From the NCBI GenBank assembly GCA_045535205.1, contig JAZSLF010000097.1:3860-67859 (forward strand): a stretch of DNA of 64,000 bases, in the 5' to 3' direction. Position 1 is the first letter of the stretch, and each line of letters begins with the position of its first letter. The position numbers and the translations under genes were made by a program. The stretch comes from Eubacteriales bacterium (GTDB taxonomy: Bacteria > Bacillota > Clostridia > Oscillospirales > CAG-272). Positions 15,701 through 59,247 of this stretch are shown here, piece after piece. The notes under the pieces are model-generated. The model was not told the origin of the DNA. It saw nothing but the letters and a program-made list of their open reading frames with translations, and did not search any database.

Positions 15701-18369
15701 ACGAGAACGATTTATTCCCCGATATTACAGGAAATCTCACTATTGACTTTGATCTGCATTTCACGTCGCCCGACTGTTGTATCATTCTTTACAAGCCTGA
15801 TTATACGAACGGACTCTACGGTCAGAGAATTGAAATTCTCGGCGGCTCATATAATACGGATCCTAACGGCGGCACATGCGTCAACTTTGTTACAAATACA
15901 ATAAATCCCAACGGCTCTTTAAATAATGACGCTTACGTTTACGGAATCAACCTCAATGATCCTAAGTTTGACGGAACTGACATTGATAACGGTCTTACTT
16001 GGGGCGAAAACACATGGCATCATATAAGAATTATTTGCGATGAAACTTCCAACAGTACAGAGCTGTATATTGACAACGTACTTGTTGCAAAAGTAGATGG
16101 TTGGATCTTTAAGTCTCCCGTTATCAATGATGCCGATGGTGTTGTAAGTAATAAGCATTCTCATAAGGGCATTTATATGCTCAGCTGGATCAATAAGGCG
16201 GGTAACCCCGTACACACTCAAAGCGGAATGCCTATGAGATTTATTCAATACGGATCTGATAATGGCGATTGGAATGTTTGGGTCGATAATCTTAATATCA
16301 AGTCCGAACGAGTACATATATACGATGACTACGATGATACAAGAAATGCAGTATACGGCGTCGAAAGTAATATTACAGCTGAATTTGTAAACGTCGTGGA
16401 TCCTACTGTGGTTTCTCCTGAACTTATCGCTCAGAATGTATTTGTAGCAGATAATGACGTTTCAAACAAAGTATATCTTTATGAAAAGATGTATAAATAT
16501 GACATTGAGTATTACTATGACGGAATTAAAGACGACAGCCTTACGGAAACAGGCTATCGTTCAATTGGGGCATCTGTAACATATTCTGATAAAGCCAAAC
16601 TTGGTTATATTTTTGACAAAGCTTCCCCCGCAGGAACAATAACTGTAGGAGAGAATACAGCAAATAACGTTATCAAAGTATATTATGTAAGTGCCGGATC
16701 TGCTAATAACGACAGCTATGCTGTAAGTTTTTCCAAAACAGCAATACCTGCAGCTTATTTTGCAGAAAACGATACTATCAGAAATTCTGTTACAAATTAT
16801 ACACTTAGCGGTATAGCTTCTGCTATAAATGGAAGTGTTAATACTATTTATACATCAAGTATTGTAAATAACGCAGTAGTAAACAGCAATGGTGTAACAG
16901 TTACTCTTGAAAACGGTAACGTAATTGTAAATTCCACGAATACTACAGATATTAATGTAGATTTTTATCTCCAGTATTCATTTACGCAGAATGGACAGAC
17001 AGCATATATCTATTCTTCAGCAAAACTTATTTCCGCAACATCTATTTATTTTGAAGATAACGCAGGGCTTATAAATTATGCCGGCGGAACACTTCAAAAC
17101 GGTGGTAACTACGGTTGGGAAAAGGTTGGATCAGGCTCTGTTCCTACAGCCCTTTATAACGATGTTTACGGATATTCCGATACATATAATAATGTAGCAA
17201 ACATTCAGTATAGTGCAGGCTCTTCATACAAGCTTACAATGCCCGAAAGACCTGATTATGAAAACGAGGCTTACGCTTCATTCATATTTAACGGCACAGG
17301 CTTTGATGTTATCAGCCACGCCGATTCAACCGCCGGTATAGTATTCGTAGATGTTTATAACGTGGTAAACGGTGTTCGTACAGGCGATGCTGTCAGAAGT
17401 TATTTTGTAAATAACTATCTTGGCTACACTTACAACGGAGAAGAATGGCTTCCTACAGACAACGCCGATGCTATTTGGCAGGTTCCCGTGATCAAGGTTG
17501 ACGATCTTGCATACGGCACTTATGAAGCTGTAATTACACCTACATACGTCAGAGACTTTAAGGGCAGAACAGAGGGTGATACAAACTTCTATCTTGACGC
17601 TGTAAGAATTTACGCACCTATGGAAAACAATGAAGCATTCAATTCTGTTTATGCCGCTGTCGGACAGTATGCACCTGTATATTACGATATAGGCGAGCTC
17701 ATTATCAGCAGCGATAACGACAATTGGAACAGCGGATGTTCCGGTGTCATGTACATTACGGGTAAGGGCTCGACAGCAACAGCGTCCGATTACACAAAAT
17801 TCGGTCCTAACCACGAGGTATATCTTAACAGCTCCGATTATATTTCTTTCTATCTTGTATCTGACTCTCCCTCAGCCAATATTGCAATCGGTGCATCTGC
17901 CATCGGTTCTGCGGCAACTCTCAGCACAGCACACGGAAAGAATACCACAGAATATACGCTTAAATCGGGTCTCGATATGTATTATCCCTTAAACGTAGAA
18001 TGGACCTTTGAAAACGGTGCTTATAAGACTGATATTATAACAGTATCAGCTAAGTCAGGTCTCGTTTCCGTAACAGATATAAGATGTACAGAAGAGGCAG
18101 CTGCAGTTTCAACATTATCCTTTGAAACATATTCCGCTTCCGTAATGGAAAGCTCTTTGGATAGTATTATCGAAATTCTTAATGCAGTTCTCGGCGATGT
18201 AAACGGTGACAACGTAGTGAACGCTCTTGACTCTCTTATAGCAAAGCTTTACGTAACAGGTTCCAAGGAACTTACCGAAGCACAGCTTTACGCACTTGAC
18301 CTTAACGGCGACGGTGTAATAAACAGTAAAGACGTGCTTAAACTCAAGTTACTCATTCTCGGTAAATGA
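12727..18369 (+). CDS. giant secreted multidomain protein with C-terminal type-I dockerin
   Basis: Signal peptide 'LLLLVSMLGNLIPIVSLAAD'. Three copies by eye of a ~100-aa module ('G.EY..L....G..YAL...W.F....G.YLW'). A Cys/His repeat region (14497..15099). A LamG-like segment ('NTWHHIRIICDETSNSTELYIDNVLVAKVDG'). A MucBP-like segment ('YDIEYYYDGIKDD...VIKVYY'). Dockerin 'GDVNGDNVVNALD...DLNGDGVINSKD' (18193..18366). Confidence 0.85.
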   Translation: MKRAPKVLISLLLLVSMLGNLIPIVSLAADSDTVGGFYYKPASSVVPGKEYLVLSTNNTGTAYALAPTDSASTENKNTTKSVPVSINADGTVSGSDSTAELEWEFIQSTPTTSDNRAKVLYMLQNKATGAYLWNPSYEVDTSVFGTCITPIQDAYNGSTFAAFDYNTALTAATGSENILGDITGTATFQGAWMKLQSPSNGDGNFAVNFTRSTLSTNTWRFFTYTYHTGLAAQGTTLTVGQQARIYTDTTGNPGFAQDYSFLVSSSPIQSGWNSPSLDLISFAKLNGASFFTGNIKRIRLDLQDTNTKPNQHGFVDSVALGKTAAGIQTLAMYRNDVANARGGGLMPSVEYPFCQFEIGNINNNHWAIAFYSNQSASKNYMMAPDTDGGPFRFGYNHAGIYLYEKVYDDNSSFEWVIADELINGEEFALVSVNNGTGKIFNCDGTVSTVTVSGNRIISEVPATSTWSAYINSDINGTNAVSGQKGFWLAANYLIASTAAQPQYINIRPFLITHGNNVNTTYPHSSVVGNYYDTNLCNYTWNYENGKLISAHINKAQVVGATNDATKSVGFSGDALTTDGTGTVYIFKKTYHEHNYVETNRINATCTTAGEVTYICECTATKTDVIGALGHVTGALSSVDRDFHGYTCTRCSELVKSAHTITYEDDDAVYHERICLYCDYHETETHTLDVTTVDPNCVHGTITISHCNYCGFHDESDDGDFSGHVNNPGSVLIPASCTTEGTLKYTCLVCGDASGIGTIEAHGHMYSDWYNKNATTRVKKCLHCGDEITENYSNYTTDYVYGLVDYPISGRDYIIANTAYTGNGFAAASPNYVDSSKETIVSTPIIINGKDSTSPVPYIKPNSAGENILWTAEVNGNKFAFKNIGTNEYLWARTMTSESCPEWIHNNIGSSTNLSDYLFSAVTASGAGGSGEAIISGLGTELIAPTGIRVGFEENIYSNGFTIPGKNALRFQPGDFHYPIVGFVNPDGNVIRHENDLFPDITGNLTIDFDLHFTSPDCCIILYKPDYTNGLYGQRIEILGGSYNTDPNGGTCVNFVTNTINPNGSLNNDAYVYGINLNDPKFDGTDIDNGLTWGENTWHHIRIICDETSNSTELYIDNVLVAKVDGWIFKSPVINDADGVVSNKHSHKGIYMLSWINKAGNPVHTQSGMPMRFIQYGSDNGDWNVWVDNLNIKSERVHIYDDYDDTRNAVYGVESNITAEFVNVVDPTVVSPELIAQNVFVADNDVSNKVYLYEKMYKYDIEYYYDGIKDDSLTETGYRSIGASVTYSDKAKLGYIFDKASPAGTITVGENTANNVIKVYYVSAGSANNDSYAVSFSKTAIPAAYFAENDTIRNSVTNYTLSGIASAINGSVNTIYTSSIVNNAVVNSNGVTVTLENGNVIVNSTNTTDINVDFYLQYSFTQNGQTAYIYSSAKLISATSIYFEDNAGLINYAGGTLQNGGNYGWEKVGSGSVPTALYNDVYGYSDTYNNVANIQYSAGSSYKLTMPERPDYENEAYASFIFNGTGFDVISHADSTAGIVFVDVYNVVNGVRTGDAVRSYFVNNYLGYTYNGEEWLPTDNADAIWQVPVIKVDDLAYGTYEAVITPTYVRDFKGRTEGDTNFYLDAVRIYAPMENNEAFNSVYAAVGQYAPVYYDIGELIISSDNDNWNSGCSGVMYITGKGSTATASDYTKFGPNHEVYLNSSDYISFYLVSDSPSANIAIGASAIGSAATLSTAHGKNTTEYTLKSGLDMYYPLNVEWTFENGAYKTDIITVSAKSGLVSVTDIRCTEEAAAVSTLSFETYSASVMESSLDSIIEILNAVLGDVNGDNVVNALDSLIAKLYVTGSKELTEAQLYALDLNGDGVINSKDVLKLKLLILGK

Positions 18370-48130: not shown

Positions 48131-48164
48131 CAAATCCCGGGAATTTTCTCGGGATTTGCTTTTT
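48131..48164 (+). terminator. rho-independent terminator after the DUF975 gene
   Basis: CAAATCCCG...CGGGATTTG followed by CTTTTT. Confidence 0.65.
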
Positions 48165-48183: not shown

Positions 48184-48212
48184 TTGACAATTCAGTTGAA
48201 TTATTGTATAAT
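48184..48212 (+). promoter_or_regulatory. consensus sigma-A promoter of paralogue A
   Basis: TTGACA (48184..48189), 17 nt, TATAAT (48207..48212). Confidence 0.6.
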
Positions 48213-48243: not shown

Positions 48244-51200
48244 ATGAAAAGATTGATTTCCGTTCTTATGGTATTAGTACTGATCATGTCTGCATTCAGC
48301 ATACATGTATCAGCACAACCGGAGGATAAATGCTACGGCTTTGACGAATCAGGAAGCTATGCATTTTTCAACAACTTAACTCTTTCACCGTCAGACAGTT
48401 CAATCGAATTTGATTGGTCATTTGCCAAAAACTCACAGGAGAACCCAAAGCTCTTGATCAATGCGGCCGTAGAGATTACGGAAACATCTATAATTGCAGG
48501 AGGAACAAATCAGCCTATTCTTTGGGGTGATGCTGAAATCACCCATTGGAGACACGTTGAGGTAGTCTTTTCAACTGCAGGCTGTACCGTGTATCTTGAC
48601 GGAGAACAGGTGTTTTTTGCAGCAGGAGTGCAAGGAAGAAACGATGGATTTTTCTTCATAGCATTCCCCGGAGATCATTATATTGATAATGTTAAGATAA
48701 AATCAAACGGTGCAGAATTGGTGTCTGTTGATTTCAGCAGCAATTCCGTTATTGCATCTTGTCTTTCGGCGGATTCCTCAGGAACTGTAAAAACCGTTCC
48801 TCAGAATTCATATTATGATTATGAGCCTGATGTTACAACTGCAAACATCAGCTATATTTTCAACAGCGAAGACAGCTGTACTGCATTGACGACAGGTACT
48901 GAAAAAAACATTCTTCTCGGAGACCTTACCGATGACGGTGTTATCAATGCAAGAGATATTCTCAAGATGAAGCGTGCAACCGTACACGGCGACAGCGTGG
49001 ATAATCTTGCAGCTGATATGAACTCCGACGGTCTTATTAACGGCAAGGATTCTCTGCAGCTTAAAAGGACAGCTACAGGCAAGCTTAATCCTGTATACAA
49101 AGTTGTCGGCTCACAGACAAAAGCAGAATATGATACGGATATGAACAGTGCTAAGCTCACAGCTTCGGAAACTGTAACAGAAGGAATTGATGCAACACTT
49201 AATTTAGACAGTATTGACCCCGAATCATATAAATTTGCTGTAATCACTTACATGACACCGAACAGCAAGGATAATAAAAACTCAAATGCCGCTGTTGCTT
49301 CTTCCTTCGGAGCATACGGCAACCTTGTAGAATATGAGCTTATAAATGACGGATTTTTCCACTCACAGATAATTGACCTTTCAGAGATCAGCACGTGGAA
49401 CGGAGATAAAGCAACGCTTCGTTATTTCACAGCTGCCAATGAAGGCGATACTGTTTATATTGATTCCGTAATATTTACGGCAACCCTTTCAAAAGCAAAA
49501 ACCGCAGCAGCCGAAAGAGAAGCTTTCAAAGCCTCCTACAGCATAGTAGACAAGCCAGACCCAACTGCCGCTATCGGTTCCGTTGACAATAACGGAAATT
49601 ACGTTATCAGATTTGATACGGAAGACAAAGTCATTAACAAAGTTACTAACGGCAACAACAGTAAGGCAGCCTTTGAGAACGATTCACTGAAGGCAACGGC
49701 AACGGCAGGTTCTGACCCCAGCATTTATCTTGACCTTGCCGCAGAAAATATTTCTGCAAACACATATAAATACATCGTGTATACTTATATGATACCCACA
49801 ACAACACAGAGAAGCGACCCTCCCGCAAATATGTATTTTGTAAATGAATATATTGACGGTCCTGCTGCAGGATATGAAACACCGTTGTTCAACTGTAAAA
49901 AGTCCGGAAATTACGCAGTTGCAATTATTGACATGAATAGTGTCAGCACATGGAACGGAATGCTTTCGGGACTCAGAATCGACTATTTCTCAGATTGCTA
50001 CGCAGGTGATACAGTATACATAGATTCCATTGTTTTCGCTAAAGACTCAACCTCTGCAATCAAGATAGGTAACGACAGAGTAAAAGACAGAAACGGCGGC
50101 GGCTCCGCCTTTAACGCTTCGGGCATATGGAATGAATTCTGTGCCTATCACCAGTATTCAAACAGTAATGAATTTGTTACGGTAAGCGGCACAAACGTTA
50201 CACTTTATTTCCGCTATAATACAGATTCAACTAAATTCACACCCCGTTCACTCGGCGACAGACTCGGCAGAGCTATAACCGAAGCGACAGGCTATCAGAT
50301 TACAGCTGAAGTACACAGCGGCTTTGAAGATCTTCTGAACAATTTCGGTTATGCAGAACCGAGAGCAAACGTATTCTACACAATAACTTACGAAGGCAAG
50401 TCATATTGCATATACGTTGAAACAATAATTATGAAAGACTCTTCATACTATGATGTACTTGACGGAACAGAGAGCGACCCTCAGCCTGTATCATATAACA
50501 CAAACACATGGTTTTCCGACGGTCTGTACATTTCCGATTCTACGTCTCTGCCTCACTCTACCAGCCCTCTCGCAGCTCACAGTAATCATGAAACAAGAAT
50601 AGTAGAAACGCCTTACGGTACTTTTGCCGTTATTCCGTTGTGGGCAGACAGCAATTCCTGGGGAACAATAGGCGGTGCTAATTTTACACTTTTCAGAATT
50701 TATGACGATGGCTCATATACACAGCTCGGCACTTGGGACATGGCACATCACACGTCAAAGCCTAACATAATGTATGCAGCAGACGGAAATATATATATTT
50801 CTCAGAACGATGACCAAAGTGATTACGTAAGCAGTCTGATGCTTTATTTCGATCCCTCTGCACCCAACTCAGACGGTTCGTACAATATTCACGGCGGCAG
50901 AACGAACATCAGCTATACCGGCGGCAGAGCACCCGGCGGATACGGATATATCCAGCCCATACTCGATGATACAAATGGTAAGATTTATATTATGGCATCC
51001 GGCGGTTCAAACGGCGGTTATCTTGCGTGGACTATATACAATTATAACACACACTCCTGGGAAACAAGTTCATCCTATACAGCACAAATAAATACCTACA
51101 GGCATTGTTATTTCTATGGTTACAGCGACGGAAACAGAGGTATATATCTTGTTGCAGGCCGTGATGTGCTTCTTTCAACACTTGGTCTCGCAGGCACAGT

Positions 51201-51819
51201 AACCGGTGCTGATTATGCCTGGGATGAAGTTAACCTCTTCCACATCCCTAACATGAACAACACAGGATATACAAGAACAGTTGTACTTGAAGCAGACTAT
51301 ACTCAGACGTACCGCCAGCTTTATCCCACGATAGCTAATAACAGAAACGGTGACACATATCTCACCGAAGACGGTTACCTTCATATACTTTCAACAAAGT
51401 TTATGCACGGTACCTATCACCACGATACAAGGTATCAGGAAATGTGGCATGCGGTATACGATTGTACAACTCCGGGAATGAAGCCTATTGAGATATATAA
51501 TAAACCAATTAAGTTTATCAGTCCTTCTCATTTCTATTCAGTAAGAATGACAGAGAACACAGACGGCGAGCTTTACATTTTTGCAATGCCTACAGACAAA
51601 AGTGCCCGTTGTGAAATATGGAAAGAAACAGATCAAAATGCATTGTCCTTTGATCTTGTAGGCTGCAGAGCATTTTCCGACGGTTCAAGTCCTTCAACCT
51701 CAATTATCATAACAAATAGAAGAAGCGGTTCTACCATAAACAATAAGGTCTACTGCATTTACCCGACCGACAGCAACGGAGGTACATTGTATAAATTCTT
51801 TACAGCAGAGCTTCCGTAA
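48244..51819 (+). CDS. secreted LamG-like/internal-dockerin/2x unknown module/His-rich C-terminal domain protein, paralogue A
   Basis: AAGGAGAA RBS before ATG 48244. Signal peptide 'VLMVLVLIMSAFSIHVSA'. LamG-like 'THWRHVEVVFSTAGCTVYLDGE'. Dockerin at 48919..49086 ('GDLTDDGVINARD...DMNSDGLINGKD'). Colinear with the next two ORFs. Confidence 0.85.
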   Translation: MKRLISVLMVLVLIMSAFSIHVSAQPEDKCYGFDESGSYAFFNNLTLSPSDSSIEFDWSFAKNSQENPKLLINAAVEITETSIIAGGTNQPILWGDAEITHWRHVEVVFSTAGCTVYLDGEQVFFAAGVQGRNDGFFFIAFPGDHYIDNVKIKSNGAELVSVDFSSNSVIASCLSADSSGTVKTVPQNSYYDYEPDVTTANISYIFNSEDSCTALTTGTEKNILLGDLTDDGVINARDILKMKRATVHGDSVDNLAADMNSDGLINGKDSLQLKRTATGKLNPVYKVVGSQTKAEYDTDMNSAKLTASETVTEGIDATLNLDSIDPESYKFAVITYMTPNSKDNKNSNAAVASSFGAYGNLVEYELINDGFFHSQIIDLSEISTWNGDKATLRYFTAANEGDTVYIDSVIFTATLSKAKTAAAEREAFKASYSIVDKPDPTAAIGSVDNNGNYVIRFDTEDKVINKVTNGNNSKAAFENDSLKATATAGSDPSIYLDLAAENISANTYKYIVYTYMIPTTTQRSDPPANMYFVNEYIDGPAAGYETPLFNCKKSGNYAVAIIDMNSVSTWNGMLSGLRIDYFSDCYAGDTVYIDSIVFAKDSTSAIKIGNDRVKDRNGGGSAFNASGIWNEFCAYHQYSNSNEFVTVSGTNVTLYFRYNTDSTKFTPRSLGDRLGRAITEATGYQITAEVHSGFEDLLNNFGYAEPRANVFYTITYEGKSYCIYVETIIMKDSSYYDVLDGTESDPQPVSYNTNTWFSDGLYISDSTSLPHSTSPLAAHSNHETRIVETPYGTFAVIPLWADSNSWGTIGGANFTLFRIYDDGSYTQLGTWDMAHHTSKPNIMYAADGNIYISQNDDQSDYVSSLMLYFDPSAPNSDGSYNIHGGRTNISYTGGRAPGGYGYIQPILDDTNGKIYIMASGGSNGGYLAWTIYNYNTHSWETSSSYTAQINTYRHCYFYGYSDGNRGIYLVAGRDVLLSTLGLAGTVTGADYAWDEVNLFHIPNMNNTGYTRTVVLEADYTQTYRQLYPTIANNRNGDTYLTEDGYLHILSTKFMHGTYHHDTRYQEMWHAVYDCTTPGMKPIEIYNKPIKFISPSHFYSVRMTENTDGELYIFAMPTDKSARCEIWKETDQNALSFDLVGCRAFSDGSSPSTSIIITNRRSGSTINNKVYCIYPTDSNGGTLYKFFTAELP

Positions 51820-51832
51820 TTAAAGTACAACC

Positions 51833-51860
51833 TAAGGCTCCTCATAAACGGGGAGCCTTA
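51833..51860 (+). terminator. terminator of paralogue A
   Basis: TAAGGCTCC-tcataaacg-GGAGCCTTA followed by TTT. Confidence 0.6.
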
Positions 51861-51896: not shown

Positions 51897-51925
51897 TTGA
51901 CAGATCGCACCAAAAACTGTATACT
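51897..51925 (+). promoter_or_regulatory. sigma-A promoter of paralogue B
   Basis: TTGACA (51897..51902), 17 nt, TATACT (51920..51925). Confidence 0.55.
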
Positions 51926-51968: not shown

Positions 51969-54900
51969 GTGAAAAAAATCATTTCTCTCTTGTTGATCGC
52001 AACAATGCTGTTACCAATGTTCATATTCAGCGTGTCTGCGACACCGCAGGACAAATGCTACGTTCTTGATGAAAGAGGAAGCTATGCCTTTTTCACAAAC
52101 GTTACTATCGACCCTGCCGACACTCTTATTTCATTTGATATGTCTTTTTCAAGAAACTCTGACGGAGCAGCAACTCTTTCGGTAAACAGCACGCTTACCA
52201 TCACTTCGACCAATGTTTCAATCGGCGAAACCTCAAAAGCAATATCGTGGGGGGCTATGGAAATTGAGCATTGGAGAAAAGTTGAAATCAAATTCGACTC
52301 CGCAGGATGTACGGTGTACATAGACGGCGAAGAAATTATCAACAGTCCCGGAACAAGCGGAAGAAACGATGGTTTTTATTTGATCGGCTATCCCGGTACC
52401 CACCATTTCGACAACATTAGCATTACGTCGAAATCAAAAGAAGTTCTGTTTATGGATTTTTCCGACACAAGTGCCATCGGTGCAAATATGTCTGCTGACT
52501 CAAGCGGCAACATTGTCACGGTTCCCGAAGGCTCCTACTATGACTACGATGCAAATGCTGCCGCTAATATCACTTATCTTTTCAACAGCACAGACAGTTG
52601 CTCTGTTCTTACAGTAGGTTCAGTTGAAACAGTTCTTGTGGGAGATATTAATCTTGACAAGCTTATCAATGCTAAAGATGTATTACTGTTAAAGCAGTCT
52701 ACAACAGGAAAAAAAGAAATAGATTATCGGTTTGGAGATTTTGATTATAATGCTGTTCTTAATGCAAAGGACTCATTGTCTCTCAAAAAGACCGTTCTCA
52801 ATATTATCACACCGGTATACAAGGATTACGGTAGCACGTCACCTGCTGACTTCGACGAAGAACAAGCTGCAGCCAAGCTGACCGCAAACGATATATCAAC
52901 GAACGGTCTTGATGCAACTTTTACGCTCGATAACATAGATCCCACCGTATACAAATATGCTGTAATTACTTACATGACACCCAACAGCGACGAAGTATCC
53001 AACTCTGCGGTTGCCTTTCAATCCGCATTTGGTGCATACGGAAATCTTATTAATTATGAGCTTATCACAGACGGTTATTTTCATTCAAAGGTAATCGATC
53101 TTTCAACCGTCAGCACCTGGAACGGAGATAAAGCTACCATAAGATTTTTCACCGCAGCCAATGAGGGTGACACCATTTACATTGATTCCGTTATATTTAC
53201 ATCAACAGAAAACAAAGCAGAAGCGGCCGCTTCAAACAGAACCGCTTCAAAAACGGGTTACGGTATATACAATGACCTTGATCCAAACGGTCCCATCGGC
53301 TCATTTGACGGGAACGGAAATTACGTGATCAGATTTGATTCCGAAGAAAAAATTTCCTATAAAGTTTCCTCATACAATAACAGCTCCGTATCGTATGAAG
53401 ACAATTCACTCAAGGCTGTTGCAACTGCAGGAAATGACCCGAGTATTTATCTTGACCTTGCCGCAGAGAACATTTCTTCTGACACTTATAAATTTATTGC
53501 CTACACATACAAAATTCCTGTTGAAACACAAAGATACGGACCTCTCGCTAATATCTATTTCGTAAACGAAAATATTTCACAACCTACAGCGGGATATGAA
53601 ACACCGTCTTTCGGTTGTGAAAAGACAGGGAAGTATGCAACATATATTATCAACACTTCAAATATTTCCACATGGAAAGGACTTCTCACCGGTTTCAGAA
53701 TTGACTTCTTTACAGATTGCTATGCAAACGACACCGCTTATATTGATTCCATTATTTTCTGTAAATCAGAGACCTCCGCTGCACAGGCAGGAGAACTGAG
53801 AGTAAAAGACAGAAACGGCGTCAGCCTTGCAGCATCTACAGCTGAAATCTGGAATGAATACTACTCTTATCACAGAAACGCAAACGGATACGAATATATC
53901 TCTGCAAACGGCTCAGATGCAGCAATGTATTTCCGTTTCCATACGAAAACCGAAAGATTTACTGCACGTTCTCTCGGAGACAGAATGGCACGTGCCATTT
54001 CCGAAGCTACAGGTAAAAAAATAGAATGCGAAGTCAACAACGGTTTTGCAAGTCTCAAAGACAGCTTTAATTCAAGTGATTATCCGTCAGGATACATTCA
54101 TTATACTCTTACATATAAGGAAAAATCCTATAATGTGAGAATATTGACCTGTATCAATAAGGATGACACTTATCATGACGTGCTTGACGGTACGGCTGAT
54201 GATCCTGTCGTTTCAACAGTAAACACAAGCACATGGTTCAGCGAAGATCTCTCTGCAACCGACTCTGTAAATCTTCCCAAAGTGGAAGCCAGCCTTGCAA
54301 TTCACAGCAACCACGAAACAAGACTTGTCGATACACCTTACGGAACATTCGCAGTTCTTCCTCAATGGGAAGACAGCTCAAGATGGGGAGTTATCGGTGC
54401 GGCTCATTTCGGACTTTACAGAATTTACGATGACGGTTCTTCAAAGGAGCTCGGCTCATGGGATTTTGCTTACCACACATCAAAGCCGAATATTATGTAC
54501 GCAGCAGACGGAATGGTCTATGTAGTAAGCACCGATGACCAATGGGACCACATGAACAACCTTGTTCTTTACTTTGATCCCTCTGAACCCAATTCGGACG
54601 GCTCTTACGACATTCACGGCGGAAGAACGACCATTCCTTACAGCGGCGGTCCTTGTCCCGCAGGCTATGGTTATCTCCAACCCATACTTGACGATACAAA
54701 TGGTAAAATATACGTATTTGCATGCGGCGGACAGGATGCAGGTTACTTCGCATGGACTATTTACGACTACATCGATCACGAATGGGAACCCTACCAATAT
54801 TCAACTGTAATCAATTCCTACAGACATTGTTATATTTACGGTTTCTCAGACGGCAAAGACGGTATATATTTGGTTGCCGGAAGAGACGTACTCCTTTCAA

Positions 54901-55541
54901 CACTCGGACTTGCGAATACAGTAACAGGTGCAGATTACGCTTGGGACGAAATGAATCTTTTCCATTTCCCCGACATTCATTCCACAGCATACACCAGAAC
55001 CTGCATACTCGAAGCAGACTATACTCAAAGTGCACGTTCTCTCTATCCTACAATCGGAAATAACAGACACGGTGATACTCTTCTTACCCAGGATGGATAT
55101 CTGCACGTGCTTTCCACAAAATCTATGCATGGAACATATCATCACGATTATAAGTACAGTGAAATGTGGCATGCGGTATACGATTGCACAACACCTGGTA
55201 TGAAACCTCTTGAGGTTTATAACAAACCTATAGCATTCGCAACCGAATCAAACGGATATACAATGCGAATGGCCGAATCTGCAAAGGGCGAACTTTATAT
55301 ACTTGCCATGCCCACCGACAGAGGTGCAAGATGCGAGATTTGGAAGGAAACAGATGATAAAGCCTTTACGTTTGAACTTGCAGGATGTAAGAATTTCTCA
55401 GACTCCACCACACCAAACTCTTCGATCATTACAACTAACTCAAGAAACGGATCAGTTATAGATAACGTTGTTCCTTGTTTCTATCCGGTGGAATCCGGTG
55501 GTGGATACATTTACAAATATTTCACAATAACTTTACCTTAA
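51969..55541 (+). CDS. secreted LamG-like/internal-dockerin protein, paralogue B
   Basis: GGAGG lies 7 nt before GTG 51969. Signal peptide 'LLLIATMLLPMFIFSVSA'. 'EHWRKVEIKFDSAGCTVYIDGE'. Divergent dockerin at 52641..52802. Confidence 0.85.
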   Translation: MKKIISLLLIATMLLPMFIFSVSATPQDKCYVLDERGSYAFFTNVTIDPADTLISFDMSFSRNSDGAATLSVNSTLTITSTNVSIGETSKAISWGAMEIEHWRKVEIKFDSAGCTVYIDGEEIINSPGTSGRNDGFYLIGYPGTHHFDNISITSKSKEVLFMDFSDTSAIGANMSADSSGNIVTVPEGSYYDYDANAAANITYLFNSTDSCSVLTVGSVETVLVGDINLDKLINAKDVLLLKQSTTGKKEIDYRFGDFDYNAVLNAKDSLSLKKTVLNIITPVYKDYGSTSPADFDEEQAAAKLTANDISTNGLDATFTLDNIDPTVYKYAVITYMTPNSDEVSNSAVAFQSAFGAYGNLINYELITDGYFHSKVIDLSTVSTWNGDKATIRFFTAANEGDTIYIDSVIFTSTENKAEAAASNRTASKTGYGIYNDLDPNGPIGSFDGNGNYVIRFDSEEKISYKVSSYNNSSVSYEDNSLKAVATAGNDPSIYLDLAAENISSDTYKFIAYTYKIPVETQRYGPLANIYFVNENISQPTAGYETPSFGCEKTGKYATYIINTSNISTWKGLLTGFRIDFFTDCYANDTAYIDSIIFCKSETSAAQAGELRVKDRNGVSLAASTAEIWNEYYSYHRNANGYEYISANGSDAAMYFRFHTKTERFTARSLGDRMARAISEATGKKIECEVNNGFASLKDSFNSSDYPSGYIHYTLTYKEKSYNVRILTCINKDDTYHDVLDGTADDPVVSTVNTSTWFSEDLSATDSVNLPKVEASLAIHSNHETRLVDTPYGTFAVLPQWEDSSRWGVIGAAHFGLYRIYDDGSSKELGSWDFAYHTSKPNIMYAADGMVYVVSTDDQWDHMNNLVLYFDPSEPNSDGSYDIHGGRTTIPYSGGPCPAGYGYLQPILDDTNGKIYVFACGGQDAGYFAWTIYDYIDHEWEPYQYSTVINSYRHCYIYGFSDGKDGIYLVAGRDVLLSTLGLANTVTGADYAWDEMNLFHFPDIHSTAYTRTCILEADYTQSARSLYPTIGNNRHGDTLLTQDGYLHVLSTKSMHGTYHHDYKYSEMWHAVYDCTTPGMKPLEVYNKPIAFATESNGYTMRMAESAKGELYILAMPTDRGARCEIWKETDDKAFTFELAGCKNFSDSTTPNSSIITTNSRNGSVIDNVVPCFYPVESGGGYIYKYFTITLP

Positions 55542-55554
55542 TTTATTTCAAATG

Positions 55555-55587
55555 CACACAGCCTTATCGGCTGTGTGTTGTTTTTTT
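55555..55587 (+). terminator. terminator of paralogue B
   Basis: CACACAGCC-ttatc-GGCTGTGTG followed by TTGTTTTTTT. Confidence 0.7.
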
Positions 55588-55607: not shown

Positions 55608-55635
55608 TTGACTTTTGATTTATATAGTGTATAAT
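55608..55635 (+). promoter_or_regulatory. sigma-A promoter of paralogue C
   Basis: TTGACT (55608..55613), 16 nt, TATAAT (55630..55635), with TG immediately upstream of the -10. Confidence 0.55.
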
Positions 55636-55665: not shown

Positions 55666-58600
55666 ATGAAAAGAATTTTATCATTAGTGCTTGCTTTAAT
55701 GATGATCATATCATCTATGGCAATCATCTCAAGTGCAGCTCCTTCAGAGCAGTGTCTTGAACTCAGTGGTGACAATGTTTATTCATTCCTGACAAACATG
55801 TCGATAAATGCCACCGATTCGTCAATTTCATTCGAAATTTCAATGGCAGCAGATGCTGAAGGTGCCCCGGTTTTGGCCATCAACGCAGGTGCCGTTGAAA
55901 TTACACCCACTCACATTAAGGTCGGCTCCCAGACTAAATCAATAGAATGGGGAGAAGTAGCTTCTACTCACTGGAGAAGAGTAGAGCTTCAATATACTTC
56001 AGCAGGTTGTACTGTATACCTTGACGGTGTACAGGTTACATCAGTTGCAGGTCAGACATGCAGAACAGACGGTGTTATCCTTATTGGTTACCCCGGTATT
56101 ATCATGATCGATAATTTCAAAGTTGTTTCTGCAGGTGTAGTGACAACTGAATTGAACTTTGAGGATGAGGGCGAATACCTCAACCACAAGCATGGCGATT
56201 CTACAGCATCAAGAAGTCCTGTTCCCGAAGGTTCTTACTGCGACTACGAAGAAGTAGTTCTTCCCGACAATATCGAATACATATTTGACAGTGCAGCAAA
56301 TTGCGAATCCCTGACAATTGGTTCCGAAGAGACAATTCTTATCGGTGACCTTACAGGCGACGGAATTATCAACGCAAGAGATATTCTCAAGATGAAGAGA
56401 GTTACCATTCACGGCGAAGCAGTTGACACACGCAAAGCTGACTTCAACGAAGACGGTCTTGTAAACGGTAAGGACTCTCTTATGATGAAGAGAACGGTAT
56501 CCGGTCTTCTTCAGGCTGTAACAAAGGTATTCGGCTCAGCAGAAGCACTTCCTTTTGAAGCTACACAGCAGTCAGCTAAGTTTGTTGCTTCTGAAACCGT
56601 TTCAAACGGAATCGATGCTACACTTAACATGAGCGAAATCAGCTCTGACGATTATAAATACGCAGTTATCACATATATGACTCCCAACAGCTCAGAAATC
56701 AGCAACTCTGACGCTGCTGTTGAATCTGCATTCGGTGCATACGGTAACCTCGTTTCCTATGAACTGAATACAGACGGTCGTTATCACGCACAGATCGTTG
56801 ATCTTTCCAACGTAAGCACTTGGAACGGTGACAGTGCAACACTCCGTCTCTTCGTCGGTGCAAATGTAGGCGATACCATCTATATTGATTCCATTATATT
56901 TACAGCATCACTTGCAAGAGCAAACTCCGTAGCAACGGCAAGAGAAGCTGCAAAGGCTTCCTACAGCATTACAGATGCTCCCATTAAGGAAGGTCTTGGT
57001 TACTACTTCGGCGATGATTATGTAGTTCCTTTCAATTCCGAAGGAAAGCTTGAATACGTTTCAAATTCCAACAACAGTAGAATTGAATATTCCGCTACAC
57101 AGAATGCAATTAAAGCAACAGCTACAGCAGGTGCTGACCCCAGCATTTATGTAGACCTTACAGAAGAGGGAATATCCGCTGATACATATAAGTATATTGT
57201 ATACACCTACAATATGCCCACAACAGTACAGAGACAGGGCCCCAAGGCTAACTTCTACTATGTATGCGGCAACATTGATGTTCCCACAGGCGGATATGAA
57301 TGTCCTACATTCTCTTGCACAAAGAGCTCTGAATTCAAAACACAAATTGTTGACCTTTCTGCAAACAGCAATTGGTCCGGAAGTATCAAGGGTCTTCGTA
57401 TAGACTACTTTACTGATGCAATTGTAGGCGACTGCGTATACATCGACTCTCTTGTTTTCTGCAAGTCACTTTCCGCAGCAAATACAGCCGCAAGACTTCG
57501 TCTTGAAGAACGCTACGGAGTTGCTGAAGTTGATGCAGCAGGCGTATGGAATAACTACTGGAACTATTACCAGAACCAGAACGGTTATGAATTTATCGCA
57601 GGTTCTGCTACAAACCTTCAGATGTACTTTAAGTACAGTAGCGAATCAGCTCTCACAGCTCGTTCACTCGGTGACAGATTTGCACGTGCTATCTCCAATG
57701 CTACAGGTTATGAAGTAACAGCAGAAGTATACGGCGGTTTCGTTGAGCTCCACAGCAGCTGGTCAAATTCTTCACCCAATGCTTATGTATTCTATACGAT
57801 CAGATATAACGGTGAAGCATACGTAGTTCGTGTTAAGACAAACATCATCAAGGATTCCTCTTATTCTGATGTACTCGACGGTACCTCCGCAGATCCTCAG
57901 GTTGGCTATGAAAACACAAGCAACTGGGCTTCCGATGGATACGCAATTACCGACTCCAAGAAGCTTGCAAGCTTCTCATCATATCTCGCTTACCACAGTA
58001 ACCACGAAGCAAAAATGCTTAAGACTCCTTACGGTACTTTCGCAGTTTACCACACATACGCAGACATGGATCGTGGCAATTACACAGGCGCTGGTAAGAT
58101 CACGCTCTTCCGCATCTATGACGACGGTTCCTATAAGGCTCTTGGCGAATACTCGGTAACAGCTCACACAACAAAGCCTCAGCTCATTTACGGTGATGAC
58201 GGTCTTGTTTACTTCATCTGTCCTGATGACGATTTTGACGACCCTGCATATGCGTCCATCTCTCTCGGTTACTTTGACCCCTCCAAGCCCAATGCTGACG
58301 GTTCTTATAACATCACATACTCCAGAACAAACAGAGCATATCCCGGCGGCGATGCTCCCGGCGGTTACGGCTACTCACAGCCTGTAATGGATAAGACAAC
58401 AGGCAAGATCCAGATCTTCTACTGTGGCGGTCGTGACGAACTCGGATTCTATGTATGCTGGTTCACATATAACTACCGTACACATCAGTGGGAAGGCGGA
58501 AACAGCACAGTAATGTGGGATCACTACAGAAACTGCTACCTCTATACATTCCCGGATGGAAAGGGAGGTATGTACATCATTGGCGAAAGAGCATGTCTGC

Positions 58601-59247
58601 TTGAATGTGTAGGACTCAAGGGTATTGTTTACAACGTAAACTACGCTTGGGATGAAATCACTATGTTCCATATTCCCGATATGACTAAGTCAGGATATAC
58701 AGCACAGACAATAGTTCCTGCAGACTACTCTCAGGTTGCAAGAGAGCTTTATCCCACAACAGGTAACAACGCAAACGGCGACGTTTATATCACAAGCGAT
58801 AACAAGATGCACGTTCTTACAACAACAAGAATGCACGGCAGAGATCATCACGATACACAGTATTACCAGATGTGGCACACAGTATATGATATCGCAACTC
58901 CCGGTGCAGAACCCAAGCTTCTGTTCAACGAACCCATCGCATTCGCATCTCCTTCAAACTTCTACTGTATGAGAATGATCGAAAACACAGATGGCGAACT
59001 CCACATCCTTGCAATGCCTGTTGACAGAGATGCAAGAGTAGAAATATGGAAAGCTGATGATTCACTCGGAAAGACATTCTCCCTTGTTGCATGTCAGAAC
59101 TTTACACAAAAGAATGAGGTAACAACATCACTTATCATTTGTTCACCCAGAAACGGATCTATAGTTGATAACAAGGTTCCTTGTATGTATCCTATTGATT
59201 CATCCGGTCAGAGCAGATATATGTACTTTGAAGTAACACTCCCTTAA
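55666..59247 (+). CDS. secreted LamG-like/internal-dockerin protein, paralogue C (most divergent)
   Basis: GGAGG before ATG 55666. Signal peptide 'LVLALMMIISSMAIISSAA'. 'THWRRVELQYTSAGCTVYLDGV'. Dockerin at 56344..56511. Confidence 0.85.
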   Translation: MKRILSLVLALMMIISSMAIISSAAPSEQCLELSGDNVYSFLTNMSINATDSSISFEISMAADAEGAPVLAINAGAVEITPTHIKVGSQTKSIEWGEVASTHWRRVELQYTSAGCTVYLDGVQVTSVAGQTCRTDGVILIGYPGIIMIDNFKVVSAGVVTTELNFEDEGEYLNHKHGDSTASRSPVPEGSYCDYEEVVLPDNIEYIFDSAANCESLTIGSEETILIGDLTGDGIINARDILKMKRVTIHGEAVDTRKADFNEDGLVNGKDSLMMKRTVSGLLQAVTKVFGSAEALPFEATQQSAKFVASETVSNGIDATLNMSEISSDDYKYAVITYMTPNSSEISNSDAAVESAFGAYGNLVSYELNTDGRYHAQIVDLSNVSTWNGDSATLRLFVGANVGDTIYIDSIIFTASLARANSVATAREAAKASYSITDAPIKEGLGYYFGDDYVVPFNSEGKLEYVSNSNNSRIEYSATQNAIKATATAGADPSIYVDLTEEGISADTYKYIVYTYNMPTTVQRQGPKANFYYVCGNIDVPTGGYECPTFSCTKSSEFKTQIVDLSANSNWSGSIKGLRIDYFTDAIVGDCVYIDSLVFCKSLSAANTAARLRLEERYGVAEVDAAGVWNNYWNYYQNQNGYEFIAGSATNLQMYFKYSSESALTARSLGDRFARAISNATGYEVTAEVYGGFVELHSSWSNSSPNAYVFYTIRYNGEAYVVRVKTNIIKDSSYSDVLDGTSADPQVGYENTSNWASDGYAITDSKKLASFSSYLAYHSNHEAKMLKTPYGTFAVYHTYADMDRGNYTGAGKITLFRIYDDGSYKALGEYSVTAHTTKPQLIYGDDGLVYFICPDDDFDDPAYASISLGYFDPSKPNADGSYNITYSRTNRAYPGGDAPGGYGYSQPVMDKTTGKIQIFYCGGRDELGFYVCWFTYNYRTHQWEGGNSTVMWDHYRNCYLYTFPDGKGGMYIIGERACLLECVGLKGIVYNVNYAWDEITMFHIPDMTKSGYTAQTIVPADYSQVARELYPTTGNNANGDVYITSDNKMHVLTTTRMHGRDHHDTQYYQMWHTVYDIATPGAEPKLLFNEPIAFASPSNFYCMRMIENTDGELHILAMPVDRDARVEIWKADDSLGKTFSLVACQNFTQKNEVTTSLIICSPRNGSIVDNKVPCMYPIDSSGQSRYMYFEVTLP

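Follow-up and report, generated by a model that had tools for sequence, protein, structure and literature searches.

What lies at this locus? Three intact open reading frames, which we call paralogues A, B and C, follow one another in tandem on the forward strand of the 64,000-nucleotide stretch of DNA that we analysed (the window). Each encodes about 1,190 residues, and the products are 51–58% identical (A–B 58%, A–C 51% over the full length). The first positions listed in table 1 are likely the true starts; for A, the ATG at 48244 was preferred to the TTG at 48163, since that codon precedes the predicted promoter. Terminator-like hairpins follow the upstream DUF975 gene, A and B, so that each paralogue appears to be transcribed as a unit of its own.

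Three tandem dockerin genes and their common C-terminal domain

Paralogue A opens with a signal peptide (MKRLISVLMVLVLIMSAFSIHVSA|Q) and a weak LamG/ConA-like N-terminal domain, a sub-threshold match to Pfam Laminin_G_3. There follow an internal dockerin, two duplicated modules of about 115 residues, a linker domain of about 100 residues and the C-terminal domain discussed below. The dockerin of A matches Dockerin_1 (PF00404) at an E value of 4.1e-8. Against a cut-off of 22.9 bits, A scores 33.8, C 34.9 and B a sub-threshold 18.4; dockerins of the PDB match as well (6kg9, for example, at 5.4e-9). By this type I dockerin the window proteins would count as cellulosomal components. The two duplicated modules of A are 37% identical to each other, each ending in GDTxYIDS[IV][IV]F. 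They look beta-sandwich-like, and they gave no Pfam match and no family assignment.

Table 1. Positions in the window of the three paralogues, their domains, the flanking signals and the conserved elements of copy A.
Feature	Position	Strand	Basis or remark
Paralogue A	48244..51819	+	ORF, translation, three-copy alignment
Paralogue B	51969..55541	+	Layout as paralogue A
Paralogue C	55666..59247	+	Layout as paralogue A
Dockerin type I module of A	48916..49068	+	Pfam PF00404; internal, residues ~226–276
Dockerin equivalent of B	~52641–52799
Dockerin equivalent of C	~56344–56499
Two tandem ~115-residue modules of A	49123..50070	+	BLASTP E 1e-15; DNA repeat family D5
C-terminal domain of A	50440..51816	+	AF2 model, predicted seven-bladed beta-propeller
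C-terminal propeller domain of B	54165..55538	+	Family HMM score 742, HMM positions 2–460
C-terminal propeller domain of C	57856..59244	+	Family HMM score 750
Sigma-70-like promoter before A	48184..48212	+	12/12 consensus positions; consensus match only
Sigma-70-like promoter before B	51897–51925		11/12 consensus positions; consensus match only
Sigma-70-like promoter before C	55608–55635		11/12 consensus positions, -10 element ending 55635; consensus match only
Terminator-like hairpin 3' of DUF975 gene	48131–48158
Terminator-like hairpin after A	51833..51860	+
Terminator-like hairpin after B	55554–55578
H47-S-N-H-E-T-R53 of A	50578..50598	+	Loop before strand A, blade 1 (DSSP topology)
R221-H-C-Y224 ... 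R241 of A	51100..51162	+	Strand A and end of strand B, blade 4
H315 codon of A	51382..51384	+	Start of strand C, blade 5; 87% conserved family-wide
MHGTYHHDT block of A	51403..51429	+	Loop between strands C and D, blade 5
R428-S-G-S431 of A	51721..51732	+	Blade-7 loop with short helix

A C-terminal domain of about 455 residues is common to all three paralogues. An earlier reading of the sequence alone had proposed such a domain and listed its conserved motifs. Both are confirmed: nearly all the motifs lie where they had been placed, and HSNHE has its first His codon exactly at 50578 in A, 54303 in B and 57994 in C. A regular-expression check found every block in the three copies, with two small slips of wording: GGYGY reads AGYGY in copy B, and two wildcards rather than three precede [LM]FH in the YAWDE block. 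Nor is the domain more than mildly His-rich (2.8–3.5% His, against 1.0–1.1% in the N-terminal part). In A it comprises 459 residues, is stop-free on translation and is ordered over about residues 23–457. Within it the identities are 67% (A–B), 51% (A–C) and 49% (B–C). Synonymous differences between paralogues are saturated (pS ~0.75), while pN is just 0.22–0.35; the paralogues have been kept intact by selection. Judged by this low pN and by the at least 130 other cluster representatives described below, conservation of the domain exceeds chance.

Predicted fold and structural neighbours

What fold might this domain adopt? The AF2 model of the copy A domain (me44e7ec03281; pLDDT 85.2, pTM 0.88) is all-beta with 28 strands, and that of a relative, P0045, 27% identical to the window copy, likewise has 28 strands (pLDDT 91.1). 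We read these two independent models as seven-bladed beta-propellers with four strands per blade, which bears out the earlier guess at a propeller. The periodic DG.[IVL]Y[IVF] pattern that had suggested it occurs in its strict form just once or twice per copy, but in a looser form three to six times. The six looser matches in copy A (positions 115, 179, 232, 311, 375 and 447) are turn-plus-strand elements in six of the seven predicted blades.

The best Foldseek matches of the copy A model in the PDB are the PL42 structures 7esl/7esk (E 2.8e-11, TM 0.57/0.61); PL24 (6byx, 6byt, 7drq), GH145 (5mul) and PL25 (5uam) entries are among the other leaders. With the P0045 model, the best ten hits are all PL42, GH145 or PL24. 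Both models match 7esl/7esk with a Foldseek probability of 1.00 (TM 0.51–0.61), and PL24 and PL25 entries fall within the top 10–35 hits. This similarity to the lyase propellers appears to be one of fold only (TM 0.45–0.6, 9–13% identity), and seven-bladed lectins and WD40 proteins score nearly as high with either model. Pfam and NCBIfam gave no match to the propeller domain of the window copies, and searches of the PDB by sequence and by profile returned nothing significant, with no PL42, PL24 or PL25 entry at E ≤ 10 in the profile search. Neither profiles nor Foldseek place the domain confidently in any characterized family. It was rightly called unclassified, and the family is named in none of the databases consulted (Pfam, NCBIfam, PDB).

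Is it a BNR_4 propeller, as had been suggested? FoRham1 and the PL25 enzymes belong to Pfam BNR_4 (PMC8377490, PMC13193363). The suggestion led to the right neighbourhood, the best structures being PL42 FoRham1, GH145 BT3686 and PL24, but membership itself fails. The three window proteins have no hit to BNR_4 (PF15892) at E ≤ 1. Among 59 multidomain members the best score is 20.5 bits (P0115, E 3.3e-4, in a rotated register), and a looser scan adds P0089 at 13.3 bits, both below the gathering score of 27.3; ten distant standalone members gave no BNR_4 match in the Pfam search. The Asp-box expression S.D.G.[ST]W is found in 0 of 106 family domains (the BT3686 control gave SFDNGVTW), and a relaxed pattern found nothing in the three window copies. 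With all scores below the cut-off and no Asp-box, we reject BNR_4 membership. The supposed HH..KP resemblance, too, is not a feature of the family.

How close is the relation to PL42 (formerly GH145; FoRham1 7ESK/7ESL/7ESN, BT3686 5MUK/5MUL)? The seven blades that define PL42 are present in the AF2 models, and the size is similar. FoRham1 is an L-rhamnose-alpha-1,4-D-glucuronate lyase with a central, anterior site built of Tyr, Arg and His from several blades (PMC8377490). Against the PL42 profile (A7), hhalign gave a probability of 2% (A3) or 7% (106-sequence profile). In the collinear, non-significant alignment at 7%, Y170, Y224 and R241 lie opposite Tyr150, Tyr202 and Arg220, the uronate-site residues of FoRham1 (PMC8377490). 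The catalytic His85 (base/acid), the supporting His105 and the neutralizer Arg166 (PMC8377490) lie opposite a gap, D125 and A186. The PL42 His-His-Arg set thus appears to be lost, a weak test at an alignment probability of 7%. Other members align in rotated blade registers with similarly weak scores, so residue equivalences to the lyases are unreliable. The segment most similar to PL42 is the SGxSxxG...W stretch of blade 3. A GH88 gene follows the PL42 gene in loci L038–L040, whereas none adjoins a propeller-family gene; PL42 occurs in Bacteroides and fungi, the propeller family in Clostridia.

The PL24/PL25 ulvan lyases (LOR_107 6BYT/6BYX, Uly1 7DRQ, PLSV_3936 5UAM/5UAS) are also seven-bladed and secreted. 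They need no metal for catalysis, which falls to anterior-face His, Tyr and Arg residues. The catalytic sets are H146, H167, Y243 and R259 in LOR_107 and H123, H143, Y188 and R204 in PLSV_3936 (PMC8377490). By inspection, the conserved residues of the propeller family match neither the order of these sets nor their H-(20)-H-(45 to 76)-Y-(16)-R spacing (PMC8377490). The hosts of the ulvan lyases, unlike those of that family, are marine Proteobacteria and Bacteroidota, and their substrate is ulvan.

The family and its conserved residues

How widespread is the domain? At least 130 cluster representatives carry it, as an exhaustive HMM search showed. The domain HMM matched 137 of 155 retrieved proteins, 103 of them over its full length, and distant members are just 21–27% identical in sequence. 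All 31 genome loci are in MAGs of uncultured Clostridia, Oscillospiraceae or Ruminococcus from ruminants, horse, chicken and human, and the named cluster members are entered as 'hypothetical protein [Clostridia bacterium]'. On present sampling, all members of known source are from uncultured Clostridia of gut and rumen. Tandem arrays are common. The partners in the 59 multidomain members include SLH (23/59, as three repeats in the anchored relatives) and dockerin (5/59), besides fn3, Ig, Big_2 and FctA; a known catalytic domain was never found by Pfam beside the propeller. In signal peptide, dockerin or three SLH repeats, beta-sandwich modules and tandem paralogues these proteins resemble the modular CAZymes that Clostridia carry on cellulosomes or anchor in the S-layer. 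They differ in that the module in the catalytic position of the window proteins belongs to no CAZy-linked Pfam family, and in that their dockerin is not C-terminal but follows the LamG-like domain and precedes the duplicated modules.

The genomic context, scanned at 30 genome loci and around the window genes, is mostly housekeeping; no gene, GH88 and GH105 included, recurs as an operon partner at the family loci. Sugar-utilization genes are sporadic. One locus has the propeller, an SBP-like lipoprotein (called by eye from the sequence) and a GH78 alpha-L-rhamnosidase; a second has fucose isomerase, AXE1, Mannitol_dh and a DeoR regulator; a third has an ABC sugar transporter, an AraC regulator and AXE1. 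DUF4838/GH67N-type proteins make up 3 of 118 scanned neighbours.

Which residues are conserved? Counted over 106 family domains (17 close and 89 distant members; copy A fragment numbering), the polar residues conserved family-wide are H47 (94%), R53 (88%), Y170, R221 (87%), Y224 (98%), R241 (88%), Y259, D262, Y287, H315, R428 (96%) and S431 (95%). Each is unique to an individual blade; only a generic turn-plus-strand pattern recurs. By DSSP topology, they lie in D–A loops, at the starts of A strands and in B–C loops, which we infer to be the 'anterior' face. The face of R428/S431 depends on the blade-7 assignment; in the P0045 model this loop lies between strands B7 and C7. Since most of the conserved residues fall on one face by topology, the models suggest a single central site, and in them the R221/Y224/R241 segment is the core of this candidate site. 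It is on the anterior face that the one central active site of propeller enzymes is usually found. The remaining blocks are of another kind: H50, E51, K107, H222, H268, H323 and H328 are residues of the close subfamily only. H323 and H328 are conserved in 88–94% of the close members against 0–1% of the distant ones. The 'His-rich' blocks (MHGxxHHD, HH) are, on this alignment, subfamily-specific.

A putative glycan-active enzyme

What, then, might the propeller do? An unclassified carbohydrate-active domain, as first proposed from the sequence, remains the best hypothesis. We give slightly less than even credence to its being a new glycan-active enzyme, which would probably act on acidic or rhamnose-containing glycans. 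The Sec signal peptide would export the propeller proteins. At the cell surface, the window proteins would be displayed by their internal dockerin and the relatives by SLH repeats or Ig-like stalks. As no known catalytic domain stands alongside, we take the propeller to be the functional end of these proteins. Its conserved polar residues would, by DSSP topology, form one central site on the anterior face. Metal-independent polysaccharide lyases work with just such a cluster of Arg, Tyr and His, in which an Arg neutralizes the uronate carboxylate and His or Tyr serves as base and acid, and the PL42, PL24 and PL25 propeller lyases cleave rhamnose–uronate linkages. Because these lyases are the nearest structures, beta-elimination is the most likely mechanism. 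On this reading the substrate would be an acidic plant or host glycan, perhaps one that contains rhamnose, and the enzyme would cleave it by beta-elimination or possibly by hydrolysis, with a catalytic set that would differ from that of PL42, PL24 and PL25.

Might the propeller bind rather than cleave? As a lectin-like tip or adhesin it would tether the cell or the cellulosome to plant or host glycan, the conserved Arg, Tyr and His being the binding site; we consider this rather unlikely. The Photorhabdus lectins (PLL, PHL; 5MXG, 8Q83, 6RFZ) have the same fold, bind carbohydrate outside the cell, as the propeller would, and show the highest target-normalized TM (0.63–0.66, none above 0.66), and a propeller on an Ig/fn3/FctA stalk with an SLH anchor fits a fibrillar adhesin. 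The absence of a conserved Asp/Glu pair and of the lyase catalytic triad, and a context mostly poor in CAZymes, point the same way. On the other hand, the blades of those lectins are internally repeated, with one binding site per blade interface, whereas here the residues differ from blade to blade and converge on one face by topology. The family domains are also about 100 residues larger, with long loops. We reject a PLL/PHL-type lectin, as no binding motif repeated per blade was found in the conserved residues. Some 12 polar residues highly conserved at 21–27% identity are more typical of an active site, and in the window proteins the LamG-like domain and the two duplicated modules already make three other candidates for binding.

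Alternatively, the domain might be a retaining or inverting glycoside hydrolase using the carboxylates D262, D341, E392 or D138, after the manner of GH145, sialidase- or GH43-type propellers, which we judge improbable. GH145 BT3686 and its homologues are at the top of the Foldseek lists, where sialidases, GH43 and GH32 enzymes also appear. D262 (94%), D138 (90%) and D341 (74–94%) are conserved, and one locus includes the GH78 neighbour. However, several conserved Asp occupy a 'DG' turn between strands A and B or the lower end of strand A; in the models these positions make a structural or metal-binding role more likely, and the Asp-box is absent. A low-probability hhalign alignment pairs H47 with the catalytic His48 of BT3686 (GH145). 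His48 is on the posterior face, in the A1–B1 turn (PMC8377490; its position after strand A1 was read from the sequence). In both AF2 models four strands separate H47 from blade 2, which would put H47 before strand A1, unlike His48, and the pairing may be a register artefact.

A function away from glycans, as a protein–protein platform, a peptidase-associated propeller or another surface enzyme, seems to us more improbable again. WD40, Kelch-like and peptidase propellers occur in the Foldseek lists, several members give sub-threshold Kelch matches, and the neighbouring genes are mostly housekeeping. Several features speak for glycans instead: the bacteria are gut Clostridia that degrade fibre and display the domain by dockerin or SLH, a LamG-like domain accompanies it, PL42 and PL24 rank consistently at the top, and several loci have sugar-utilization neighbours. 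It is very improbable that the His clusters (HSNHE, HH, MHGxxHHD) bind a catalytic metal, as first suggested from the sequence; the parallels would be PL22 and the carotenoid oxygenases with their four-His iron site. His is about three-fold enriched, H47, H50, H268, H315, H323 and H328 are 88–100% conserved in the close subfamily, and carotenoid oxygenase propellers appear low in the Foldseek lists, but the clusters are not invariant in the family, with just H47 (94%) and H315 (87%) conserved family-wide and H102/H103 not conserved. The MHGxxHHD loop, missing from about half of the distant members, faces away from the conserved site by DSSP topology, and PL22 is absent from the top 50 hits.

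Returning to the glycan-active enzyme, we propose, tentatively and with somewhat less confidence than its being an enzyme at all, that it represents a new CAZy-type family, a lyase or an unusual hydrolase. Such a family would share a distant ancestor with PL42, PL24 and PL25, its apparatus having been rebuilt as H47/R53/R221/Y224/R241/H315/R428 and deployed on cellulosomes and S-layers in diverged tandem copies. To our knowledge, the Firmicutes are currently without a known enzyme for an acidic, possibly rhamnose-capped glycan of this kind. If the proposal is true, such a glycan, of plant or host origin, would be the target.

Three tandem dockerin genes

ORF calling in the window gives three tandem plus-strand ORFs, A, B and C, of about 1,190 codons each. 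Over their full length A is 58% identical to B and 51% identical to C, and the repeat families of the paralogues share 60–76% DNA identity. The paralogues are old. Their pS is about 0.75, that is, saturated, with a pN of 0.22–0.35; we conclude therefore that selection maintains all three copies. Each gene is preceded by its own near-consensus sigma-70-type promoter (11–12 of 12 positions) and terminator-like hairpins follow A and B, which suggests separate regulation of the copies, not a single operon. Housekeeping genes flank the array: CarD, EamA, DUF975, type III pantothenate kinase, an ECF transporter component and a TrmB-like methyltransferase. The window encodes a second large cellulosomal protein of 1,880 residues, its function not assigned, in which Pfam recognises only a type I dockerin at the C-terminus (4e-12).

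How are the three proteins built? A Sec-type signal peptide can be read directly from the sequence, followed by a Laminin_G_3/ConA-like domain whose match is weak and sub-threshold. The type I dockerin (residues ~226–277; Pfam, and PDB dockerins up to 5.4e-9) is not C-terminal but lies between this LamG-like domain and a duplicated module; that of copy B is degenerate, at 18.4 bits versus the Pfam cut-off of 22.9. The module, of about 115 residues, ends in GDTxYIDS[IV][IV]F, its internal copies are 37% identical (E 1e-15), and it has no match in Pfam or the PDB. It could represent a new CBM-like type. A related module lies at the N-terminus of P0001, P0002 and P0004, three retrieved family proteins. 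A linker domain of about 100 residues then leads to the C-terminal domain. This conserved stretch (A residues ~630–735; IWNEF...SLGDR...ATGY...) directly precedes the propeller, recurs in P0001–P0004 and partly in P0006, and is without family assignment.

Coordinates of features in the window and in the family loci
Feature	Location	Position	Strand
Paralogue A, likely true start to stop	window	48244–51819	+
Paralogue B, likely true start to stop	window	51969–55541	+
Paralogue C, likely true start to stop	window	55666–59247	+
Promoter before A	window	48184–48212	
Promoter before B	window	51897–51925	
Promoter before C	window	55608–55635	
Further hairpin	window	48131–48158	
Hairpin after A	window	51833–51860	
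Hairpin after B	window	55554–55578	
Dockerin, A	window	48916–49068	
Dockerin, B	window	52641–52799	
Dockerin, C	window	56344–56499	
~115-aa modules of A (equivalents in B and C)	window	49123–49515; 49648–50070	
~100-aa domain before the propeller, A	window	~50130–50440	
C-terminal fragment, A	window	50440–51816	
First His codon of HSNHE in A, B, C	window	50578; 54303; 57994	
1,880-aa dockerin ORF	window	12727–18369	+
P0056, lipoprotein, GH78	L042	8001–13571	
P0056, lipoprotein, GH78	L043	2645–8215	
Upstream divergent ORF (~960–990 aa)	L015	4024–6990	-
1,028-aa Laminin_G_3 protein	L034	8837–11923	-
Split PL42 ORFs	L039	1223–2161; 2206–2520	

Fold of the C-terminal domain

The C-terminal fragment of A translates cleanly into 459 residues, whose numbering we use here. 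The domain has no match in Pfam or NCBIfam, and PDB searches gave nothing significant, whether started from the single sequence or from a 41-sequence profile. The alphavirus capsid protease matched by the former (E 0.054) was rejected as chance, as were the SRSF1 RRM domains, the only matches of the latter. AlphaFold2, from a 10-sequence alignment, predicts copy A as all-beta with 28 strands (pLDDT 85.2, pTM 0.88). The model of P0045, a standalone member 27% identical, built with a 41-sequence alignment, has the same topology at a pLDDT of 91.1. We read the predicted strands as the seven four-stranded blades of a beta-propeller, the fold that the sequence-only reading had guessed from a periodic DG-x-hydrophobic-Tyr-hydrophobic pattern; the copy A model shows this pattern as a tight turn plus the next strand in six of its seven blades. 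The blocks quoted in that reading were each found by regular expression in all three copies, HSNHE exactly where claimed, with two trivial slips (AGYGY in copy B, and a YAWDE block with two wildcards, not three). The enrichment behind its term 'His-rich' is modest: His makes up 2.8–3.5% of the domain versus about 1.1% of the N-terminal part.

Which known structures does the model resemble? Foldseek against the PDB placed first the PL42 L-rhamnose-alpha-1,4-D-glucuronate lyase FoRham1 (7esl/7esk; E 2.8e-11, TM 0.57/0.61). The PL24 ulvan lyases LOR_107 and Uly1 and the Bacteroides GH145 protein BT3686 were also leading matches and PL25 came later, with CylK, Photorhabdus lectins and sialidases scattered among them. 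The P0045 model reproduced this independently, its best ten matches all being PL42, GH145 or PL24 entries. FoRham1 and the PL25 enzymes are members of Pfam BNR_4 (PMC8377490, PMC13193363), and so the earlier, tentative association with BNR_4 propellers pointed to the right structural neighbourhood. Membership itself did not hold: no window copy matches BNR_4, the best relative reaches 20.5 bits versus a cut-off of 27.3, and none of the 106 members has an Asp-box. The similarity lies at the level of the fold only (9–13% identity, TM ~0.5).

Can individual residues be equated with those of PL42? We rebuilt PL42 sequences from a split Bacteroides-type gene in metagenome locus L039 and from the PDB alignments that this gene yielded. 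A word-indexed search with an OCR fragment of BT3686 (supplement, PMC8377490) had returned ~100-residue fragments only, one of which led to the L039 gene. Against these hhalign gave a probability of 2% with the 41-sequence profile and of 7% with a 106-sequence profile (E 0.005 for a single comparison, 256 collinear columns). In the latter alignment FoRham1 Tyr150, Tyr202 and Arg220 stand opposite Y170, Y224 and R241, whereas the catalytic His85, His105 and Arg166 stand opposite a gap, D125 and A186. BT3686 His48 pairs with H47 in the hhalign alignment; this reading we set aside as doubtful on strand count. Four strands lie between H47 and blade 2 in both models, which would put H47 before strand A1 and not behind it. 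Since weak matches also occur in rotated registers (residues 354–498 of the family protein P0115 against BNR_4 positions 41–174), the residue equivalences with PL42 are suggestive at best.

On four independent metagenome contigs (L038–L041) a Bacteroides-type PL42/GH145 gene, with about 90% identity to BT3686, is broken into two or three ORF calls and has GH43 genes on one side and a GH88 gene on the other; in L039 the ORFs encode 312 and 104 residues and the GH88 gene follows. The break may reflect a recurrent pseudogene, a frameshift or an artefact of gene calling.

Conserved residues and their probable placement on the anterior face

Conservation was scored over 106 aligned domains, 17 close and 89 distant members, with identity to copy A as low as 21%. 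Besides the residues tabulated, the 80% threshold is reached by several structural Gly, by T57 and at the positions that align with N201 and N434 (Asp in most members). The MHGxxHHD loop is missing from about half of the distant members, and it and HH were rejected on conservation as family-defining motifs.

Residues with 80% conservation or more over 106 domains, with placement from DSSP topology
Residue	Conservation	Placement
H47	94%	loop before strand A1
R53	88%	loop before strand A1
D138	90%	
G169	88%	
Y170	83%	start of an A strand
D176	97%	
W197	85%	
W207	89%	
R221	87%	start of an A strand, with Y224
Y224	98%	start of an A strand
D230	93%	
R241	88%	end of strand B4
Y259	84%	start of a C strand
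D262	94%	start of a C strand
Y287	90%	D4–A5 loop
H315	87%	start of a C strand
G376	93%	
R428	96%	B7–C7 loop (P0045 model)
S431	95%	B7–C7 loop (P0045 model)

Placement was taken from the DSSP strings of the two models and the usual propeller convention, by which strand A begins on the 'anterior' face, where the D–A and B–C loops also lie; the PL42 literature confirms this convention for His90 and His110 versus His48 (PMC8377490). On this topology all the conserved polar residues that have a placement in the table would lie on the anterior face. They are blade-specific and do not recur from one blade to the next, which argues for a single central site over lectin-type multivalency. A non-catalytic lectin or adhesin module is an unlikely alternative, and a hydrolase using the conserved carboxylates we consider less probable again.

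Occurrence, neighbourhood and meaning of the family

A word-indexed search found only nine relatives, the best at 45–46% identity, and a second with the 41-sequence profile found no further homologues. An exhaustive search by HMM, covering 1.84 billion cluster representatives, showed a larger family: of the 155 proteins retrieved by then, 137 matched the domain HMM, 103 of them over its full length. Its raw matches numbered 3,324, a count inflated because the query profile also held a dockerin; the family comprises at least 130 clusters at 50% identity. GTDB representative genomes contain 31 loci, the closest 59% identical, all in uncultured Clostridia, Oscillospiraceae, Ruminococcus or 'Ca. 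Avispirillum' MAGs from goat, sheep, yak, roe deer, horse, chicken and human gut. The 59 multidomain members carry SLH repeats (23), dockerins (5) or, in others, fn3, Ig, Big_2, He_PIG or FctA modules, and none has a known catalytic domain. Many members consist only of a signal peptide and the propeller (~450–500 residues), and tandem arrays are frequent (L005, L010, L012, L013, L023, L027 and L044, with three copies in L020 and L037). Named sources read 'hypothetical protein [Clostridia bacterium]', and literature searches found no description of the propeller family. The family is real, unclassified and within a known fold class; its function is a prediction.

Do the neighbouring genes point to a function? 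Among 118 flanking ORFs at 30 loci there was no conserved partner. Most neighbours are housekeeping, and a few loci point to sugar use; a function unrelated to glycans we regard as rather improbable. Three of the contexts looked up lie on short contigs with few informative neighbours. The most suggestive context of all is that of the standalone family protein P0056 in L042 and L043, where its gene is followed in the same orientation by one for a ~500-residue lipoprotein, solute-binding-protein-like from its sequence, and by a GH78 alpha-L-rhamnosidase gene; upstream of these, L042 also has three GH109-like oxidoreductase genes. One further locus holds fucose isomerase, AXE1, DeoR regulator, Mannitol_dh and GHL6-like genes, and in another there are an ABC sugar transporter, a regulator of AraC type and an AXE1 gene that also gives a faint CE15 signal. 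Neighbours further include a xylose-isomerase-like gene and one for an FGGY kinase, and 3 of the 118 neighbours match DUF4838 and Glyco_hydro_67N. In three rumen MAG loci (L014–L016) an ORF of ~960–990 codons lies directly upstream of the propeller gene and divergent from it; we take these ORFs to be those three matches. In L034 a Laminin_G_3 protein adjoins P0045, echoing the LamG-like domain that the window proteins carry in the same chain as their propeller.

The metal-site enzyme suggested by the sequence-only reading is very improbable. The most striking His blocks of that reading are not features of the family: conservation of H50, E51, K107, H222, H268, H323 and H328 is confined to the 17 close members. 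We tentatively favour a glycan-active enzyme, displayed on the surface or the cellulosome, whose one active site, on the anterior face, would be rich in Arg, Tyr and His. Such a site would have the chemistry of the metal-independent uronate lyases, on a fold related to PL42, PL24 and PL25 but with a different catalytic set.

Were the domain catalytic, it would found a new family of enzymes acting on complex acidic glycans (for example arabinogalactan-protein caps, pectic side chains or ulvan-like polymers). Firmicutes would then have their equivalent of the PL42/GH145 system of Bacteroides, and the domain would be a case in which a propeller lyase scaffold carries its catalytic set in a new place. 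A domain that only binds would be a surface lectin or adhesin module of a new kind. In both cases the family can be tested directly, from its domain boundaries and the list of conserved residues. Dockerin- and SLH-displayed proteins without assigned function are a large blind spot in fibre breakdown by rumen and gut Firmicutes, and this family is always extracellular, often amplified in tandem and without annotation anywhere.
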